Shown here in pieces: positions 1 to 40,059 of a DNA stretch of 64,000 bases. Numbering within the stretch: position 1 is the first letter of the stretch; each line of letters opens with the position of its first letter. The notes below the pieces were generated by a model that was not told the DNA's origin, did no database searches, and saw only the letters and a list, made by a program, of their open reading frames with translations. Location of the stretch: the NCBI RefSeq assembly GCF_018977255.1, contig NW_024704742.1, positions 35,094,001-35,158,000 of the forward strand, written 5' to 3'. Source of the stretch: Callorhinchus milii (lineage: Eukaryota). The translations under genes were made by a program, and so were the position numbers.

Positions 1-169
1 TCAGCTCCCCTATCGACTCTCTTCCCCCTCCTCGCTCCCTCCCTTCCCTCCCCTCACCCTGACCATTTCCCCCCTGCTCGGGTCATGACCCAACTGTGCA
101 GCACCTTGGGACGTCCTCCTGACGTGAAAGGCGCTTTATAAATGGAATCTTGTTGTTGTTGTTGTTGTT
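1..169 (+). mobile_element. L2 LINE 3' end with (GTT)n tail
   Basis: ttgggacgtcctcctgacgtgaaaggcgc...aaatg + (GTT)n, same as the end of the L2 at 38690-38752. Confidence 0.8.
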
Positions 170-720
170 CTTTAGTGGTTACCAGCATATGTCCAGGTAA
201 CTTCATCAGCCTTCCTGCCATTGCCTAATAAGGTGTTATTCCTGCAGTAGAGTGAGGGGTAGGTCTAATAGCCATTAAGCACATGGGTGTAGCCACAGGC
301 CAGTGTTTGGAGTGATCTGCACAAAATTTCTTTAACATCGTTTTGAGCGTTCAGTTCCCTCTTTCAACTATCCCAGATGACTGAGGGTGGAAATGAGATA
401 TTCAATTTATGTTTTATTTCCATTAATTTCATTAAATCAGTAAAAACTTCCCCTGTGAAATGGGACCCCTGATCATTGTCCAAGGTTACAGGTATTCCCC
501 ACCTGCAGATCACCTCACAAAACAAAATACGAGCCGCAGTTAAAGCTGAACAATTCTTAACCAGAAAGGCCTCCATCCACTTAGTAAATTTATCAATGAT
601 GACTAACCCATACTTATATCCACCTTGAGCCGTGGTAAGTGGCTCAACAAAGTCAATCTGAATACTGGTTCACCATCACACAACAGCATCTGTGGAATCA
701 AGGTGGTGAGTCCGGAGATA

Positions 721-868
721 CAACAACAACAACAACTTGGATTTATTTAGCACCTTCCACACTGGACGGGGTCTCAGAGCGCTTCACAATAACGGATCCC
801 GGGGCCAAGCCAGGGGGAGGGGGAGGAAGGTGACCAAAGGCGCGGTCGAAAAGAAAGGTCTTCAGCCA
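721..868 (-). mobile_element. L2 3' fragment nested in the ERV pol, flanked by AGATA direct repeats
   Basis: Reverse complement of 33895-34040; AGATA at 716-720 and 869-873. Confidence 0.85.
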
Positions 869-1650
869 AGATAATCTCAATGTCCCTCCCTGTCAAGCAC
901 AGGATCCAATTGCTGAGTCTTTGAGATGACACCATTGTATCCCCTGGTTTCAGTAACAAATTTAAAGGTGTATGGGGCGAATGTAAGATGAGCTTCTGCA
1001 GTCCAGTGATGTAAGTGAAATGTTTTACAGCCCATAGGTGACCAACAAATGTCTCTCACATGGGTCGTATTGTTGTTCCACTCCCGTCAAAATGCGTGAA
1101 GCATAGGCAATGGAACAGTACCGACCTCCAACATGTTGGGTTAGCACAGCAGCAAGACTGTCATTTGTCCCAGCCACCTCCAGGTGGGAGGGTTACGATA
1201 GGGACGGTGCAACCAGTGTAGTAGCTTGCATCACTGCTTGTTTAAGAGAGGTGACTGCTTCACTATGTTTGACATTCCACCTGACACCAAAGGGTTGGTC
1301 ATCAGGTCCTTTTAGCAATTCATAAAGTGGTTTTCCATACTCCGAAAATTGGGGAAAGAAACTTCGCTGATACCCTACCAAACCCAAAAATGATCTTAAA
1401 GCAGTTTTGGTTCGGGATAATGGCAGTCGTTTAATTATTTCCACTTTGTGTTCATCTGGTTTCATGCCCGTGGGTGTCAACTGTAATCCCAAAAAGGTTA
1501 CCTGTTTCTGCATCAATTGGACCTTTAATCCTGCTACATGTAGTTTAGCCAATATTTGTTCCAGGAGGTGTTTATGTTGTTCTTCTGTAGTGGTGGCAAT
1601 CAAAATATCATCCACATATTGTAACACTGTCCCTGACTCATCCCGAGTGC

Positions 1651-1665
1651 ATCCCGACTACGCCA
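1651..1665 (-). promoter_or_regulatory. Primer binding site complementary to the tRNA-Ser 3' end
   Basis: Minus strand TGGCGTAGTCGG-GAT. The plus strand CCGACTACGCCA equals the last 12 nt of vertebrate tRNA-Ser (…ATCCTGCCGACTACG-CCA). Confidence 0.8.
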
Positions 1666-1673
1666 ATTTTTTT

Positions 1674-2185
1674 TGAAACATTTGCAACTATCTCCAACAA
1701 CTTTAAAATGATCTGATTCCAGTATACCAATTGGTTGTGTTAAGTCACTTTATTCAGGTCAAAACAGCAGGTAATACACAAATAAATGAAACAATAATAC
1801 ACAAGACACAAAACGGTACTACCGGATTTCTGTTACAGCACTGGTCGTCTCTCACACTGCTCCGATACAGTTCTGGAGATATATCTAACACACCTTTTTT
1901 AATGACAACTTAAATACTCCCAACAAAGCTGACTTATTAAGAAAAACAACTTCTTATATGATTATCTTCTACAAGCTTGCATAGCAACAGTCTCTACTTT
2001 CTGTATCCTTGTACTTCCTAATCTTATTTTGCCACCTTGTTTTGGGTTCTGCCATGCAGTTACTTAGCTTTGCAATCTTTGCACTTCTATTTTATATTCT
2101 TAAAGCACACTTTAGCATTAACCCACTACAACAGACAGAAACCTACTTCTGTGATCCTTCATATTATACTGTAGTTATTTCTTCA
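1674..2185 (-). mobile_element. Putative 5' LTR of the element
   Basis: Ends ...TTTCA 8 nt before the PBS. Minus-strand AATAAA at 1749-1754; TGAA...TTCA inverted termini. The far boundary (2161 or 2185) is uncertain because no second LTR is present. Confidence 0.55.
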
Positions 2186-2938: not shown

Positions 2939-5900
2939 GTAAGTTACAAATATTAACCACTATGAAGTCTGGCTGGGTGAAGGCTATTTCCGTTTTGAAT
3001 TTTTTTACATGTGTCGAGTGTAATAGTGTGACCTGCGAGCTTGGAACTATAACCTAATTGTACTGCAGTTAGCATTGATTCAGTGTCGTATAATTCAGGT
3101 TTTAGGGCCATTGATTCAATTTTATTGAACTTAAGATACTGTAACATCTGGTTTTATGCTGCTGCTTATTCCAGTCATTTTTGACTCAGTTTAAATAAGT
3201 ATAAGGCAGTCCATTGGGACTCCTACAGACCTTTTAATGTTAAAGTGCTTGACAGGCAACTGGCTCACCAGTAACATTAAGGAAGTAACAGCCTTTTGAT
3301 GCCATGCAGGGTAGCTCTGTGTTGAATGTGCAGAGCTCCCAGCAACCATTAGCACAGTGCTGCAGAAAACCATGTCACAAAAGATTTTGCTCCACAAAAC
3401 TACTGAGAACAAGAAAAAGCTATTCAGCCTATTCCAACAGTTTATTAAATATTGGCAGATATTTAGGTCCAACACCTACCCTTTCACAAAACCCCTTAAT
3501 ATTTCTGCTATTCACGCATTTATCTATTTCTCACGTAAACATACTTATTGAGGCTTAGCAACTAAAAAAGTTTGTAATTTCCTTATAGTTGTTGGTGGTT
3601 TCAGGAGCTAAACCTGCTTCCAAACTCTCTAAATATAAGCCAATGGTTTCTCTTTTTGTTGCTACTGCTCTTCCCTTGTGTATCTGCTGCAAATGGAAAT
3701 GAAGAATGCGACTTGTTTAAAAACAATTTTTTTTAGAGATTGTTTGAGAAATTGTGCCATAAACAACCAGTACTCATAAGGACGTAAGAAAATACTCAAG
3801 AACATGCCCATGCTCATCTGGCTTTAAATGTTAGTTTGACTAAATTTAATTTTTCTGAAGTGAAAGATTACAGGAATGGATTAAAGAGTGAATCTTTAAT
3901 TACTTAATTTAGCAACATGGACTATTATGTGGCATTTGGTTTTGTTCATTGTAATTAGATGTGGGAGAGTGGACTGTCCTCAAATCAGATACTGTATAAT
4001 CTTGTGTGTATTGATGTGGTTTTTGTTTCACAATTCAGACTTTCAGTCCATAAATGTGGAAAAATCTTTTCAGAATGCCTCTTTCGTATCCCTTCAGTGA
4101 TGATCACTAATAGACACTATCCAAATGCAACTTTCATTTAGGCTGCTGTAAGAAGTGGTTCTATAGATTTACAGTAATGTATATAGTCACAGCAAAATCT
4201 TGTGAAGAGCTTTGAGAAGTTTTAACAATGTTATATGGTTGTGTATCAAACGCTAGCATTATTATATATCATCCCAAAATAGCATCTGATATGTAAGAAG
4301 ATGGCTTAAGTATCCTGGATGAGATGCTCTAAAATGTAAGATGTCCTATATTGGATAATGCTCAAGATATAAGAATATAGACAGTGCGTATATATCTTAC
4401 ATGTACGCTCGACTGGCACCAGCCTCCTGCTCGTCCCTTACACCCTCTGCCCACCATTAGAGGTTGCACTTTCAGCCACTACACCCCAAAACTCTGGAAC
4501 ACTCTCTTTCAATTCCTCCACCTTGCCCCCTCTCTCCCCTTTTTCAAGCCCCGCCTGAAAACTTTCCATTTCGACCATGCTTACAGCCACTTCCCCACCC
4601 AGCTTGGAGTCAGGCTCCGCCAGTGTTAAGCGCTCTGAAACACTACCCTGCATGGAGGGCGCTATATAAGTGCAAGTTGTTGTTGTATATACATCTCTCT
4701 GTTGGATAGTAAGTGAAAATATTCCCAAAATATTAATTAGCATTGGGAAGTTCTTCCAGTGTATGAATATGATTTTAATTTAGTGATGCTGAAATTGGCT
4801 TCAAACTGTTTTGCATAATTTTACTGTCTTTAGATTCAATTTTAATTCACCAATTCAATAACTTGCAACAACAATACTTGCCAATGCATTTCACTGTCTG
4901 TCCCAGAAACTACCCCTTTCATATTTCGTGTTTGTTTGACTGAAACTGTTTTTTTTAATCAGATTTTATAGGAACTTTCTGAAGCTGACCAATACTCTGC
5001 TCTGACAAGAATTTGTAACTCTCGTTTCACCAAAGAAAAATCAAGGACTTTAACAACACACAATTTCATTTGCTCATTATTTTATTCACAGGGTTTAGTA
5101 AAAATTATAATTCAACCAAACGTATACATACATACATAAACCATACATACAATACGCCTAATAATAATCCCTCCAAAACAAAACAATAATAAATTGGTCA
5201 CTTTCACTCTATGACTGTTTGTGGGACATTGCTGTGCGCAATTGGCTGCCGCGTTCGCCCACAAATATACAGTCAATTCACTTTACAGTGTGTTCTGTGA
5301 AGCGCTTTGGGACGTCCTCCGACGTGAAAAGCGCTATATCAAATGCAAGGATTATTTATTATTATTATAATAACATAACGTAACGCTGGTCTGAATCTTA
5401 GAAGAAGAGTCAAGGAAATTTAGTTGTAAAGTCAGGTTAAATAAGAAATACAAGCATCGCAATCAATCCTATGTAAGTGCCTCAGAGGGCAAATACAATG
5501 CAGTATGATCTTTGTTAAATGTCTCTCAGACGTGTTACATTTTAGGTCATTTCTTGAGTTTGACCGGCATGGCTCAGTTGAGTTGTCTAAAATTTTGACC
5601 ATTGTGGCCCAGTTTTTGTCATTCATTCGCGGTGTCTTGTTTCTTAGAGCCATCTCTTTGAATCTTCCTTCTTAGGTCTCATACATTGTCGCTGCTTTAG
5701 CAGTTAATGGGTATTTTAAGTTTTGATAAATCTACAGTCTTTTATTTCTGTTTACCAGAGTAATTTGAAAGTTTCTTTCTCATCTCCCATTTCTCTTCTA
5801 TTTCTACATTGCAGAGCTATAGAAATTCTGTTTGTTACATTTTTTGCTTTTGATTTTCTCATTCTCTACTCTAAATCCAATCTCTCAAATGGGACTCATT

Positions 5901-8900
5901 CAATACCACTTAAGTAGCCATTCTATCAATATCCTACATTGATACTTCAGGAAAAGAACTTGGATTTTATATAGCACCCTTCACATGGAGTAATATCGTG
6001 GGAGGGCTTAATGCACAACCAGGGAGTGCCTACTATCTACAAGACTTCCATGGTTTGGGTTGACCTCCTTTATCCAACCAACAACCAGATCCACCTCTGA
6101 CTTGACTGCATTTCAAATCCCTTTACAACAATAACAACAACAAGATTACATTTGTATAGCACCTTTCAAGTCGGGAAGATGTCCCAAGGCGCTGGACAGT
6201 GTACATCATTTCAGGCCTGAGCTGGGGTCAGGGCAGGAGAGGGGAGGAGAAGGGGGTGACCGATAGGATGGTTGAAGAGGAGGTTTTGAGGGGGACTTGA
6301 AGGAGGCTAAGGAGGGGGCGAGGTGGAGTAATTGAGGGATGGAATTCCAGAGGTTGGTGGCAGAGTGGCAGAAGGCTCTCCCGCCAATGGTGAGGCGGGT
6401 GGGTCGGGGGACGTGAAGCAGGCCAGAGCCGGCTGAGCTGAGGGAGCGGGCAGGTTGGTAGACAGTTAGGAGGTCGCATGGGGTGAGGCTATCGAGGGCT
6501 TTGTAGGTGAGGACCAGAATCTTGAACTGGATTCTCTGAAGTATAGGGAGCCAATGGAGTCGGGGGAGATGGGGTCACTGAGTTTGGTGCAGGAGAGGAC
6601 ACGGGCTGCAGAGTTCTGGATTATCTGCAGCCTGTGGAGGGAGGAGTTGGGAAGGCTGACAAGCAGAGCATTTGCACAGTTGAGCCTGGAGGTGGTGAAG
6701 GCATGAACAAGAGTTTCAGTGACCTGAGGGGTGAGGTAGTGGCGGAGTCGGGTGATGTTCCGGAGTTGAGGGAAGGCAGAGCGGGTCATGGCTTGGATGT
6801 GGGCAAGAAAAGACGGTTGAGGGTCGACCAAGACACCTAGGTCCCTGACTGGCTATGGTGAGTTGAAGTGTGCAACCATGGAGGTTGATGCTGCCAGAGC
6901 ACACTGCACAATCGAAACTCCTTTATGAATGCTTGAGGGGGATGAGGAGCCATTGTCATTGCAAAGTATCATTCCCTTTCCAAAATAACCAGTTTCTTTG
7001 TTAAACGGTGTTTAAGTTTAATTTGCAGAGTAGAGTTTTCTCTCATTCATTCTCCAGCTCTATTTATTTGTGCTAATAATTTATCCAAACCTCTACTTCA
7101 GTTCCTCTTTGTCTGTATCTGAGTTGATCGTTTTGATAAAAGTGTCATTATTGCACACCGTGTCAGTCTGTCTCAGTGTGAGCATTCTAACCTCTGAGTT
7201 GGAAGATTGTGGGTTCAAGCCCCACATCAGAACATGAACCCGTATCGTTTAAGCTGACGCTCCAATGTATGCTGGGAGAGCATTGCCTTGTCGGAGGTGA
7301 CTTTCAGATGAGACATTAAACCAAGGTCCTGTCTGCATTTTCAGGTGGATATTAAAGATCCCATGGCACTTTTCAAAAAGAGAAGGGAGTTTCTCCCGGT
7401 GTCCTGGCCAACAATTCCCCAAATAAAATTGTTCTCTCCTTTCTGGACTGTTTGTGGGACATTGCTGTGCACAATTGTGCTGCATCTTTTGTGTACAAAT
7501 ACACAATCACTCCTCCTCGCAGTAAATCCTGTGAAGCACTTTAGGACGTCCTCCCAACATGAAACCTACTACACCAAATGCAAGGATTATTGATAATAAT
7601 GAAAATAACTGCCCTTATATGAAGAGCTGGACAGGGATCATCTTATTTGGATTCGATGTTGCCTTTTCATATGTTTCCAGTAACAGTAGCTCAATCGTGC
7701 CCTCGGGCTGAAATTTGACTAAATTCAGACCACTTTGCGCTGTTTCTTGACGGGGGGGAAAAAGTCTTAACTTTTTATTCCTCCTGTGTGTGTGCAATTC
7801 CTGGGAACACTAGTGGAACAAGTAGCTGATCATTTTGTATTTGTCTCTTTACATTTCTTTCTGGTTGTCAGTCTAATGGTGAGGCGTGTGATTCCTGGTG
7901 GTCTCATGGTGAATGTGTATCAGAGGGAAGTAACGGTGATGGTGGGGAGCAAACTGGACCCGCTCTATGTGGCCGTTATGCGCTTGTGAGTATGTTTCAG
8001 TCTTGCATGGTGGTGTTGGGATGGGAATGGAGGAAATGTGTCCTGTAATCTTAGATTGTTTGTGAGGATCAGTCACAATATATTCAGCTTGCCCAACTAC
8101 TTTGGAGTGAGGGCATTTTACATTTCATGTAAAATGGGTGAAAAGCACTGTAGCTAACTTGCATTGCTATTCAGTCTTTTGGCACTGCAAAGTGTTTGGT
8201 TACAAACAGGAATTTGCACTTCTGATGAATTGGGGGCCCTATAAGGAAGAAAGCAAGCACGAAGATGGCACTATATTGTACTTCACTGAGTAGAATCATT
8301 GGCAATGTACCAAGATACTAATGTGCTAGATTCTTCAAATTGCTCTCAATGGGATGTTAATTGGAGCTGTAGCCAGGGTTTGAGGAAGAAAGTGGGTGTG
8401 GTTTAGGAAGTTAATTGTAACAAATTCCTATTTACTGGTAGACAATTAAAAAAATGTAAATCACTGCTGGTTGGTGGTGGGATGATACCCTCTTATCCTG
8501 GAGAACTTTAACCTCCCCCCACCCCAACCCCCCCAGTTAGCAGAAGGCGGGGGCTGCATTCTACTCTCCAAGTCTGAAAATCAAAGTTGCCTAACTCTTC
8601 AAGAAATTCCTTGTATTAGATAAAAAATATTGCTTGGAGTTTCAGGCTTATTCAGTTGCATGGATTTGAAACTAAAGTACAGTGTTAGCATCAGTGTTGG
8701 TTAAAGGGTCTCTGGAACATATGGGTCAACAATTGGAGCACAAGTTATCACCAATAATAATTATCAAGGTCTAAAAAGTTAGGAGTCAATAGTTACCATG
8801 GAAGGGGGAACGTAGAAACAGAAGGAGGCCATTCAGCTCTTCGTGCCTGTTCCGCCATTTAATTAGATCATGGCTAATCTGTACCTCAACTAATCCTTTT

Positions 8901-32679: not shown

Positions 32680-34040
32680 TCAAAAAAATCTTCCCTAGAT
32701 CCCTCAAACCCTAGCCATTACCGCCCTATTTCAAACTTGCCCTTCCTCGCCAAAGTCCTAAAACGCGTTGTTGCCAATCAACTCCACGCACACCTCTCCT
32801 CCCACTCCCTCTTCGAACCCCTCCAGTCCGGTTTCCGCCCTGCCCACAGTACCGAGACTGCGCTTGTGAAAGTCACAAACGACATCCTCTCTATCTGTGA
32901 CCAAGGCTCCCTCTGCCTCCTTATCCTCCTGGACCTCTCCGCAGCTTTCGACACAGTCGATCACGCCATCCTCCTCCACCTCCTTTCCTCCATCATCCAC
33001 CTCAGTGGGACTGCACTCGCCTGGTTCGAGTCCTACCTCACAAACCGCCAGCTTTACATCTGTACAAACGGCTTTTCCTCCCGCTCTCACCCTATTACTT
33101 GCGGGGTACCCAAGGATCCATCCTTGGTCCCCTCCTCTTCCTAATCTATGTACTCCCTCTTGGGGATGTCATCCGCAGATATGGGGTACACTTCCGCATG
33201 TATGCGGATGACACCCAACTCTATTTTTCCACCTCACTTTGCAACCCCCAGCCACCTGTTCTGTCAGCCTGTCTGTCAGAGCTTGATGAGCGCAAATTTC
33301 CTTCAGCTAAATTTTGACATGACGGAAGCCATACTCTTTGGCTGTCGTCAACATCTAAAATCACATAGTTCTCACCTCCTCCACCTACCCGACCTGCCCC
33401 TAAAACTCAATGAACCCATACGCAACCTAGGCATCAGGTTCGACCCCCAATTATCCTTCCTTCCCCACATCCAGTCCCTCACCAGCACTGCTTTCTTCCA
33501 CCTCCGACGCATCACCCGTCTACGCCAATACCTCTCCCCAAAAGCCACTGAAACCCTGGTCCATGCCTTTGTTACCTCTCGGCTGGACTATTCAAATGCC
33601 CTCCTCGCCAGTCTCCCCTCCACTTCCATTCATAAAATCCAGGTCATCCAAAACTTCAACTTCAAGATCCTCACTCTTGTCTCCATTCCTCTGCACTCCC
33701 CCCACCTCTCTGACCTCCTCTCTCCTCACAACAGTGCCCGTTGCCTTCGTTCCTCCAGGTCTGGCCTCCTCTTTGTACCCGAATCCTCCGCTCCACCATC
33801 GGCGGCTGTGCCTTCAGCCACTATGCCCCAAGTCTCTGGAACTCCCTTCCTCACTCCCTTCGCCTCACCCCCTCTCTTTCTATTTTTAGGTCTCAGCTGA
33901 AGACCTTTCTTTTCGACCGCACCTTTGGTCAGCTTCCCCCCCCTCCCCCTGGCTCAGCCCCGGGATTCGTTACTGTGAAGCGCTCTGAGATGCCGTCCAG
34001 CGTGGAGGGTGCTATATAAATCCAAGTTGTTGTTGTTGTA
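32680..34040 (+). mobile_element. 5'-truncated L2 LINE (RT domain to 3' tail), frameshifted
   Basis: YRPISNLPFLAKV, QSGFRPAHSTETAL, LLDLSAAFDTVDH, QGSILGPLLF, YADDTQLY, (GTT)n tail. Confidence 0.95.
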
Positions 34041-38001: not shown

Positions 38002-38752
38002 ACGGATGACACCCAACTCTATCTCTCTGCCTCCACCCTTGACTCCAGGACCACTGCTGTCCTGACTGAATGTTTGTCGGACATCAATTCCTGGATGAGA
38101 GCGAACTTTCTTCAGTTGAACGTCAATGAGACCGAAGCTCTCCTGATTGGTTCCCGTCAGCACCTCCTCACCTCAGGCGCTGACAGCATCTCCATCCATG
38201 GTCGCACACTCCACCTTACTAAGCCAGTCCGGAACCTTGGGGTCTTGTTTGACCCTCAACTATCCTTTCTACCCCACATCTGCGCCGTGACCCGCTCTGT
38301 CTTCCCCCACCTCCACAACATCACCCGGCTCCGCCACTGTCTCACACTGCAGGCCTCCAAAACCCTCATCCATGCTTTCATTACATCGAGGCTCGACTAT
38401 GCAGATTATGTGACCTCCTAATCCCCTACCATCCTGCTCGCTCACTCCGCTTAGCGGGCTCCAGCCTGCTTCACGTCCCCTGCCTCACTCGCCCCACTAT
38501 TGGCGGGCAGGCGTTCTGCCACTCTGCCCCCACCCTCTGGTTCTCCATCCCATAGTCCCTCACCTCACCCCCTCCCTTGCCACCTTCTTCGACTGTGCTT
38601 TCAATTTCGCTGCTTCCCACCCTGCCTTCCACCCTCTGCCTCCCGAACCCTGACCCCCAGCTTGGGTCCGAAACTCTGTCTGTCCAGCGCCTTGGGACAT
38701 CCTCCTGACGTGAAAGGCTCTATACAAATGTAATTTTATTGTTGTTGTTGTC
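38002..38752 (+). mobile_element. L2 ORF2 3' part and tail
   Basis: DDTQLY...WMRANFLQLNVNETE...SRLDY; 3' tail at ~38750. Confidence 0.9.
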
Positions 38753-40059
38753 GTAGTGCAGAATACTGGATGAACTTAATAAGATCAAAGTTAAACTGGT
38801 GACCCAGGAACTGGCACTCCAGTGGTGCACTCCGCAGGATGAAAGTGCAATGTATGTTGAGCCGCAACCATTGTAACAAAGTGGGGAGTGGGTTAGCTGG
38901 GTGATAACACCAGACACCAACAAAGTTTTGCTTTAATTGTCATGGATAATAATTACCACATTCAGAAATTTTCACTCCTGTACACGCAGCTATGTTATTC
39001 TCTATACCTTGGGTGGTGCTCCTGGCACAAGCTAAAATTACGTACTACATTACAGGAGTGAAACAAACTATTCAGCCCAACTAGTAGTCCTTGCCAGTGT
39101 TTATACTCCACACAGAGATGTCTTGAGAGGTTCAAACACAGGTTACTGTCCATCTAGTGAAAGTCAGCTTTCTGATGACAAATTTGGGACCAGTTTAGTT
39201 TGGTGGAGATAAGAGCGTCTTGAGCTGGCTCCAAGGTAACATGCTTGACAACAGGAGAACAGAGCTGACTCAATCCTCTCTGGTGGATTTGGTGATCAAA
39301 TACCTGAATTAGACAGGACTGGATCATGTTGATAATAGTACAACCTTCCTACAAATGGGTCTTAAAGGCCCTTAAGCACTTTGAGAAACCGTCCTGCGTG
39401 AAGGGCGCAAAACGTGCAAGTTGTTGTAGTCTTGAGGGAGTAAACATATTGCTGAGTGAATCTGCTATTACCTCCTATTTTTGCAAGTCAATGTCATCAT
39501 GAGTCAAGTGAGTGTCACACCAGACAGTGGGAAAACACACAATCACACTTGTAAATTGCACAACCTTAATTCGATATATTCCAGTAATTTCGCACACTCA
39601 CTTGGGTTGGGGGTAGAGGGAGGGCTCTTTTACTATGTTGGGTTCTACCAACCCAAACCTGTGTTCTTGGGATATAGGGGGGCAGGGTGGGTTCTGTCAG
39701 CAAGAGATTGAACACTCCACTAAAGTAAACAAACCCAAACTGTGGTTTTGTAAGTTCCTGGTTGCTGGGGGAGGGGAGAGGGAATTCCCCATGTGTCGCT
39801 AAAGTGAAAAACAGAATTACAGTAATGTACTTTACTTTAATCCTTACCCGTAATATTTATGGTGTTGCAGTTACTCAACAGGGTAAAATGCAAGTACACA
39901 ATTATTTTAAAAGTACTGGATGATGATGGAATCCCTCAGAATAAAATAAGTTGTCATGAACTGCAAAATAAGTGTCAGCTTTTAACGGCAGAATTTCAGC
40001 TGAGCTGAACAATAGTAATAAGAGACTGGCAAGAACAAAAGAGAATGGCAACAACCTCA

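Follow-up and report, generated by a model that had tools for sequence, protein, structure and literature searches.

The window analysed here is a stretch of 64,000 nucleotides from the elephant shark, Callorhinchus milii (contig NW_024704742.1, forward-strand positions 35,094,001 to 35,158,000). One end of it carries a retroviral element in antisense orientation. The element is the heavily deleted relic of an ancient retrovirus insertion; it is dead, and it is not a Gypsy retrotransposon. It is probable (about 0.85) that this provirus is an old germ-line integration of an orthoretrovirus of the snakehead retrovirus (SnRV)-like group, and that it represents a sister sub-lineage of CmiERV lineage I. 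The three CmiERV lineages are endogenous retroviruses (ERVs) described in a screen of the elephant shark (Han 2015, Retrovirology 12:34, PMC4422223). According to that report lineage I groups with SnRV, and lineages II and III group with epsilonretroviruses. The SnRV-like clade is reported to consist of SnRV and ERVs of fish, amphibians, reptiles and birds (PMC4977317, PMC12193657); its hosts as given by Hayward et al. (2015) include coelacanth and amphibians.

An initial annotation, made from the sequence alone, had read the element as an antisense provirus with a long terminal repeat (LTR), a tRNA-Ser primer-binding site (PBS) and the motifs YVDD, LEVA, SPH, VSSQRLSNW and HPQSSGIVER. The PBS and all of these motifs are present on the minus strand and belong to one provirus, which occupies window positions 1-2137. 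Its 3' end lies just outside the window and was taken from neighbouring sequence of the same contig (locus L027). The LTR, the PBS, the internal fragments and the 3' LTR stub are colinear and TGTC is found on both flanks; this identifies a single provirus.

Fuller relatives and the domain order of the provirus

A protein search of the genome with the reverse transcriptase (RT) fragment of the window scored 150 matches out of 535 candidates; the best of these, apart from the query itself, was 58% identical in amino acids. Fuller relatives share about 58-62% of amino acids with the window copy across RT and the adjoining tether. They are 7.8-8.4 kb long, and only gag, pol and env were seen in them. 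They carry gag with one zinc knuckle, protease (PR) followed by RT and tether, RNase H (PF00075), integrase (IN) and a gamma-type env, and they share LTR ends (TGTT...AACA) and an 18-nt tRNA-Ser PBS. L022 is an 8.4-kb provirus with an LTR pair that is 96.1% identical over 514 bp (96.5% for the pair of another relative, L025). Its Gag has one CCHC knuckle (zf-CCHC). Its pol matches RVT_1 (E 4.9e-35), RT_RNaseH_2, RT_RNaseH and a separate RNase_H (PF00075, E 1.9e-14); rve is also present, with SH3 and MLVIN_C-like C-terminal matches. Its env matches TLV_coat (E 5.4e-11) and contains CX6CC. In L058, the reference copy of lineage I, gag, a stop codon and then protease (LVDSGS) lie in one frame, and RNase H is recognisable as YIDGSS...AELAAL...SDS. 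The search for intact copies with a second RNase H and an env, which had been proposed as a check, thus found both (PF00075 and TLV_coat in L022).

One further locus has a nested or chimeric look. L021 (G000:C13:10083000-10092999) contains an open reading frame (ORF) at 5392-7794, an 801-aa frame which starts within RT and is 54% identical to the window RT fragment. It continues into sequence resembling a non-LTR retrotransposon, and the neighbouring ORFs are LINE-RT-like.

The tether is a degenerate RNase-H-like connection domain. In the alignment, Gypsy-type rows covering both diagnostic columns read TDAS and TDH, whereas the window copy and the other retroviral rows shown read, for example, EVAG and SPH. 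The catalytic aspartates are V and P in the window copy; they are lost in all retroviral rows shown and are D in those Gypsy rows. The initial reading of a degenerate tether after RT stands. An RNase-H-like domain carrying LEVA and SPH is what a retroviral tether normally looks like, and behind it intact relatives have a second domain, PF00075.

The window copy itself appears to run from tether directly into integrase. This order was correctly read, but the direct run is an artefact of deletion. By blastx against L022 pol, window positions 1627-1043 and 1034-870 correspond to residues ~285-547 of RT plus tether, with 55% and 60% identity (55% over the 222 aligned positions across RT and tether). 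Positions 666-382 correspond to integrase residues 43-137 with 72% identity, and a further integrase piece is 55% identical. Between them the window jumps from the last tether residues to IQIDF of the integrase core. The stretch of L022 pol which is absent is ~1.06 kb long and holds RNase H and the integrase zinc finger. At the deletion site L025 reads VTGLTTLIPRMMLYDGGP and then enters RNase H; its equivalent of LIPQMLLCDGEP leads into "...VYIDGSSFHVDGK...", as is usual at the beginning of an RNase H. The apparent run from tether to integrase results from the loss of this ~1.06 kb, and since relatives keep RNase H in that stretch, the lack of a second RNase H in the window copy is due to deletion and is no trait of the lineage.

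Phylogenetic position and alternative affiliations

The lineages of Han 2015 can be located in the assembly used here. In the supplementary sequences of that paper (PMC4422223), TGGCGTAGTCGG occurs once, in the context "...TTTTCTAACAATTTGGCGTAGTCGGCAGGATCATTCAGG..."; the CmiERV_Scaffold 2 record, assigned to lineage I in Table 1 of the paper, ends in the same LTR end. A 40-nt string of PBS plus leader matches exactly at G000:C15:6256604, the lineage I locus. For lineage II, the first 30 nt of the scaffold 324 record match exactly at two sites; the one on C2 pairs with a one-mismatch copy ~9.5 kb away, and the pair brackets an RT match. For lineage III, 30 nt from close to the beginning of the scaffold 2324 record match exactly at two sites, on C29 and C3, and the C29 site served as reference.

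The RT-plus-tether tree was built with the careful IQ-TREE setting from 55 rows and 428 columns. Fifteen rows come from the elephant shark genome (the window, the three lineage references and 11 other loci), with broken frames read through and X placed at breaks. The other 40 were picked by hand from 120 listed protein-search matches, none of which is named as an exogenous virus. RNase_H (PF00075) is present in 30 of the 40, and some are gamma-like by Gag_p30, MLVIN_C or TLV_coat; the 10 rows without PF00075 in the precomputed Pfam list form the Gypsy-type outgroup. A further protein search, with the window RT fragment as query, gave only five matches, the best being 54% identical over 66% of the query.

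In this tree the 45 retroviral-type rows are split from the 10 Gypsy-type rows at 100/99. The window copy is sister (98/85) to a seven-row group holding lineage I, inside a clade of 13 rows from its own genome (100/99), and the Xenopus tropicalis Pol P0001 is sister to that clade (100/100). Lineages II and III fall with all gamma-labelled rows in a class I clade (97/98). A quick RT tree gave the same picture. The IN tree was built from 40 rows and 164 columns, after removal of 12 database rows (of 40) in which no integrase match was present. In it the window, lineage I and P0001 belong to one clade of 11 rows (SH-aLRT 95), apart from class I, and seven Gypsy-type rows are split off at SH-aLRT 99. 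The row for a partial copy on contig C6 has a long IN branch (1.45), which is probably an artefact of its stitched translated pieces.

At the base of the retroviral part of the RT tree, a clade of three rows is sister to the other 42 (100/99), and the window clade is nested within those 42. The three are P0014 (Lethenteron, a lamprey) and the teleost rows P0015 (Xyrichtys) and P0019 (Synaphobranchus), each a Pol with tether and RNase_H. Their position and hosts recall lokiretroviruses; the rows themselves are unlabelled.

Lineage I is the closest described relative. It shares with the window copy the LTR termini TGTT...AACA, the tRNA-Ser PBS and the tether motifs HLEVAG, HSPH and VSSQRL, and it is sister in the RT tree and in the same clade in the IN tree. 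It differs in that RT plus tether is only about 58-62% identical in amino acids, and in that the window copy is without gag, PR, RNase H, the IN zinc finger and env. The initial annotation had spoken of a poorly sampled host group; the family itself, however, is not an unsampled lineage and had already been published as CmiERV lineage I (PMC4422223). Gamma- and epsilon-like class I ERVs, including CmiERV II and III, also share features with the family, namely the P-H tether motif, PQS(S/A)G.VER, a TLV_coat env and a 4-bp duplication; however, they form the separate RT clade described above, and identity between the lineage II copy and the window RT fragment is only 34%.

Comparison with SnRV was by description only. 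One Gag zinc finger and gag-pol readthrough are reported for SnRV (PMC2717909), and the shark relatives are alike in this. Unlike the shark relatives, SnRV is described as exogenous and complex, with accessory ORFs and a length of ~10.7 kb (PMC12193657). The reported coelacanth and amphibian hosts of the SnRV-like clade match the nearest database relatives of the shark family, among the matches listed. A literature search for the PBS of SnRV gave no answer, and a scan of viral contigs for relatives of L022 Pol found none.

Several points weigh against placing the provirus in the SnRV-like clade. The trees are without SnRV, epsilonretrovirus, foamy virus, ERV-L and lokiretrovirus rows, and the label 'SnRV-like' depends on Han 2015 and the exact lineage I match. 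Support is weak (83/89) where the shark-plus-Xenopus clade joins coelacanth and other amphibian rows, and the position of this wider clade relative to class I is poorly supported (81/13). The window copy has no gag, RNase H or env of its own; these features are attributed to it from relatives 58-62% identical in RT. Among solved structures, the best match to the RT of the family is a foamy virus PR-RT at 203 bits, compared with 181-185 for MLV/XMRV and 144 for Ty3; the best match to its integrase is that of PFV at 95 bits (Ty3 69), with no MLV integrase core among those matches.

Of the alternatives, kinship with the class III, ERV-L-related frog element XtERV-S fares best, although it too is improbable. 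As described by Yedavalli et al. (2021, PMC8278194), this Xenopus tropicalis element has a tRNA-Ser(AGA/TGA) PBS, LTRs with TGT...ACA ends, gag-stop-pol in frame and a transmembrane protein (TM) that contains CX6CC and an immunosuppressive domain. All four are also seen in the shark family, and amphibian Pols are its nearest database relatives among the matches listed. By the same description both also have a tether followed by RNase H and a gamma-type TM env. On the other side, Table 2 of PMC8278194 gives YIDD, DYRGLN and no Gag Cys-His motif for XtERV-S, whereas the shark family and all amphibian matches examined have YVDD, and the L022 Gag has a CCHC knuckle. XtERV-S also differs in being classed by its authors with ERV-L (class III), and it is described as having a dUTPase-like region after IN (PMC8278194). 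The possibility that the nearest Xenopus protein, P0001, is XtERV-S itself was considered and rejected; P0001 reads DYRKLN and YVDD, where XtERV-S has DYRGLN and YIDD.

A loki- or spuma-related origin, which the initial annotation had favoured, is not supported, and a lokiretrovirus or a foamy-like (Spumaretrovirinae) ERV is very unlikely. Besides the structural matches given above, one paper calls SnRV 'phylogenetically related' to human foamy virus (PMC12193657). The foamy-leaning scores fit the published view of SnRV as intermediate or 'related' to foamy viruses (PMC2717909, PMC12193657); they do not make the element foamy-like by defining features. Foamy viruses are described as having a Gag without a Cys-His motif and a separately expressed pol (PMC8278194), whereas the Gag of the relatives has a Cys-His knuckle and their gag-stop-pro-pol lies in one frame. 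Lokiretroviruses are defined, according to PMC7947760, by a PF00523-like env (paramyxovirus fusion protein) and a position as sister to all sampled retroviruses. The env of the relatives is TLV_coat with CX6CC and matches neither Foamy_virus_ENV nor Fusion_gly, and the basal place in the RT tree is taken by the lamprey and teleost clade, with the window clade deeper inside. Genome searches for PF03408 (Foamy_virus_ENV) and PF00523 (Fusion_gly) gave no match; control genomes were equally empty of matches, and the absence therefore carries little weight.

The idea that the element is a Ty3/Gypsy (Metaviridae) LTR retrotransposon whose RNase H has mutated can practically be dismissed: the Pfam tether name RT_RNaseH denotes a family shared with Gypsy elements, and several database relatives bear automatic names such as 'Gypsy retrotransposon integrase-like protein 1', but in the relatives the tether is followed by a second RNase_H and the env is TLV_coat, the catalytic aspartate kept in the Gypsy rows covering those columns is lost in the retroviral rows, and both trees set the element apart from Gypsy-type rows. 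Neither branching within Ty3/Gypsy nor intact relatives with TDAS/TDH and a single RNase H, the two outcomes named beforehand as contrary to a retroviral relic, was seen.

Anatomy, primer-binding site and history of the window copy

The features of the provirus are collected in Table 1. Pfam matches on the window fragments are RVT_1 (E 8.9e-8), RT_RNaseH (2.2e-7), RT_RNaseH_2 (4.5e-7) and rve (2e-11).

Table 1. Features of the provirus in 5' to 3' order of the element; negative positions lie outside the window.
Feature	Position	Strand	Remarks
5' target-site duplication copy TGTC	2134..2137	-	adjoins LTR start TGTTGTAG
5' LTR, ~464 bp	1670..2133	-	starts TGTTG; canonical end TCTAACA decayed to A-run
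Spacer, 4 nt			between 5' LTR and primer-binding site
Primer-binding site TGGCGTAGTCGG, 12 nt	1654..1665	-	complementary to 3' end of tRNA-Ser(AGA) plus CCA
Segment of ~24 nt			between primer-binding site and RT; without recognisable homology
RT, C-terminal part (palm from YVDD, then thumb)	1196..1630	-	RVT_1; homology to L022 pol
Tether (degenerate RNase-H-like connection domain)	870..1192	-	RT_RNaseH, RT_RNaseH_2
SINE-like repeat fragment inside C-terminal end of tether	725..868 (approximate bounds)	not assigned	breaks homology to relatives
Last tether residues ISGLTTLIPQMLLCDGEP	667..724	-	end at ~1.06-kb deletion junction
Integrase catalytic core and following region	169..666	-	rve; D, D, E all present
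SINE-like insertion, ~340 bp, splitting integrase	168 to ~-170 (1..168 in window)		C6 copy colinear across site
Integrase remainder, 78 bp	-171 to -248		outside window
3' LTR stub, 99 bp	-259 to -357		outside window; 94.9% identical to 5' LTR end
3' target-site duplication copy TGTC	just past -357		outside window; after 3' LTR end TCTAACA

The LTR suspected by the initial annotation is real, with genome copies at 79-91% identity, but it is shorter than was thought and extends from 2133 to ~1670, not to 2185. Hardly anything separates the PBS from the YVDD region; the deletion that cut the PBS short also took away the leader, gag, protease, the RT fingers and the palm as far as YVDD. VLQYVDDIL starts at ~1627 on the minus strand and an in-frame stop at 1195-1193 ends the RT part. 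In the tether, LEVA lies at 1183-1172 and SPH at 980-972, and the frame shifts near 1040. VSSQRLSNW is present, and LIPQMLLCDGEP is found at ~720-684. HPQSSGIVER, at ~389-360, is not in the frame of the integrase ORF upstream of it; the frame shifts near 390, and the integrase part also contains in-frame stops. The initial annotation made no mention of the loss of gag, PR and the RT N-terminus, the ~1.06-kb deletion, the stop, the frameshifts or the two insertions resembling short interspersed elements (SINEs).

Two different SINE-like repeats have hit the provirus, and both recur in the rest of the window. The insert in the tether has a 90% identical copy at window positions 33912-34032; further copies of the ~340-bp insert lie at 6125-6430 and 38457-38754. 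A motif '...ATAAAGCGCCTTTCACGTC.GGAGGACGTCCCAA...' beside a (CAA)n/(TTG)n run recurs many times; it resembles the Deu-type SINE core of cartilaginous fishes, to which it may correspond.

The tRNA-Ser PBS proposed initially is confirmed by the relatives. L022 and L025 carry an 18-nt PBS, TGGCGTAGTCGGCAGGAT, three nt past the LTR end, in the same position as in the window, and tRNA-Ser(aga) genes predicted by ARAGORN in the same genome end in the complement of the PBS. The 12-nt PBS of the window is real and not a chance match, as the 18-nt version in the relatives stands at the corresponding position. The reverse complement of the PBS without CCA occurs at 77 sites in the genome (39 forward, 38 reverse), compared with 1 and 0 for a control read backwards. 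Thirty-two occurrences, within 30 loci (L028-L057), were inspected. Most (25/32) are followed by CCA and LTR-end-like sequence, two have a mutated CCA, and five stand at the 3' end of ARAGORN tRNA-Ser(AGA) genes; these five represent three genes, as two loci overlap. The three genes form a cluster on C3, near 20.56 Mb. Beside the PBS, the 30 loci show at least six different leaders, so tRNA-Ser(AGA) priming is common to several distinct ERV families in this genome. Target-site duplications of 4 bp were found at three insertions: the window provirus (TGTC), the solo LTR L002 (CTCT/CTCT) and L022 (ATAG). Neither the tRNA-Ser PBS nor the 4-bp duplication was found stated in the available parts of the Han 2015 text (PMC4422223).

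The copy number of the sub-lineage is low. At the DNA level the RT-tether part has no second copy in the genome, and the integrase part has only one other copy, the partial one on C6, with 89% DNA identity. Solo LTRs occur as well; one of them, L002, is 91% identical. Some 40 LTR matches might have been taken for an abundant family; this was rejected, as those at 79-84% identity are mostly one solo LTR amplified within a larger repeat whose unit is at least 3.4 kb long. L005, L006 and L007 lie on different contigs, have LTRs ~84% identical to that of the window and are 99.8% identical to one another over the 3,465 bp fetched. The repeat is found on contigs C784, C361, C205 and C52 (L005-L008) and also on C272, C353 and C721, and on several small contigs the LTR is repeated at intervals of 3.5-3.7 kb. 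The shared 3,465-bp identity and the regular spacing show that the solo LTR was amplified as a passenger of the larger repeat, and suggest a young tandem or segmental array.

The history of the element can be outlined as follows. From general retrovirus biology, minus-strand DNA synthesis would have been primed by host tRNA-Ser(AGA) at the PBS beside the 5' LTR, and integrase would have inserted the DNA with the 4-bp target duplication TGTC. Three deletions are seen. One fused the PBS to the RT active-site region, with loss of the leader, gag, protease and the RT N-terminus; a second took out ~1.06 kb with the true RNase H and the integrase zinc finger; and a third accounts for the loss of the integrase C-terminus, of env and of most of the 3' LTR. 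Later decay brought the two SINE-like insertions, and stops and frameshifts piled up. The element is non-functional today. The sole internal clock is the divergence of its LTRs, with 5 differences in 99 bp (~5%); at the rate assumed by Han (2.2e-10 per site per year) the insertion would be roughly 100 million years old, with a very wide error.

Significance of the sub-lineage

The element is of little weight alone, being dead, heavily deleted and largely ordinary. It does provide a lesson for annotation: an order of RT, dead RNase H and integrase in a raw read can be an artefact of deletion. The analysis also documents the tRNA-Ser PBS across diverse ERVs of the elephant shark genome, and the 4-bp duplication in this family. 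The clade itself is known, having been reported from the elephant shark in 2015; what is new is a divergent, nearly single-copy sub-lineage. This sub-lineage is added to the SnRV-like clade, which has been regarded as a possibly early branch of vertebrate retroviruses.

More tentatively, the window copy and its C6 sibling may form a separate and older sub-lineage of those SnRV-like retroviruses that are primed by tRNA-Ser and have a gamma-type env. If this is true, the lineage would either have persisted since before the split of cartilaginous and bony vertebrates or have crossed between vertebrate classes, given the link between chimaera and Xenopus Pols (100/100). The tRNA-Ser PBS, which is also found in XtERV-S, could then be an ancient marker linking SnRV-like retroviruses and some 'class III' frog ERVs.

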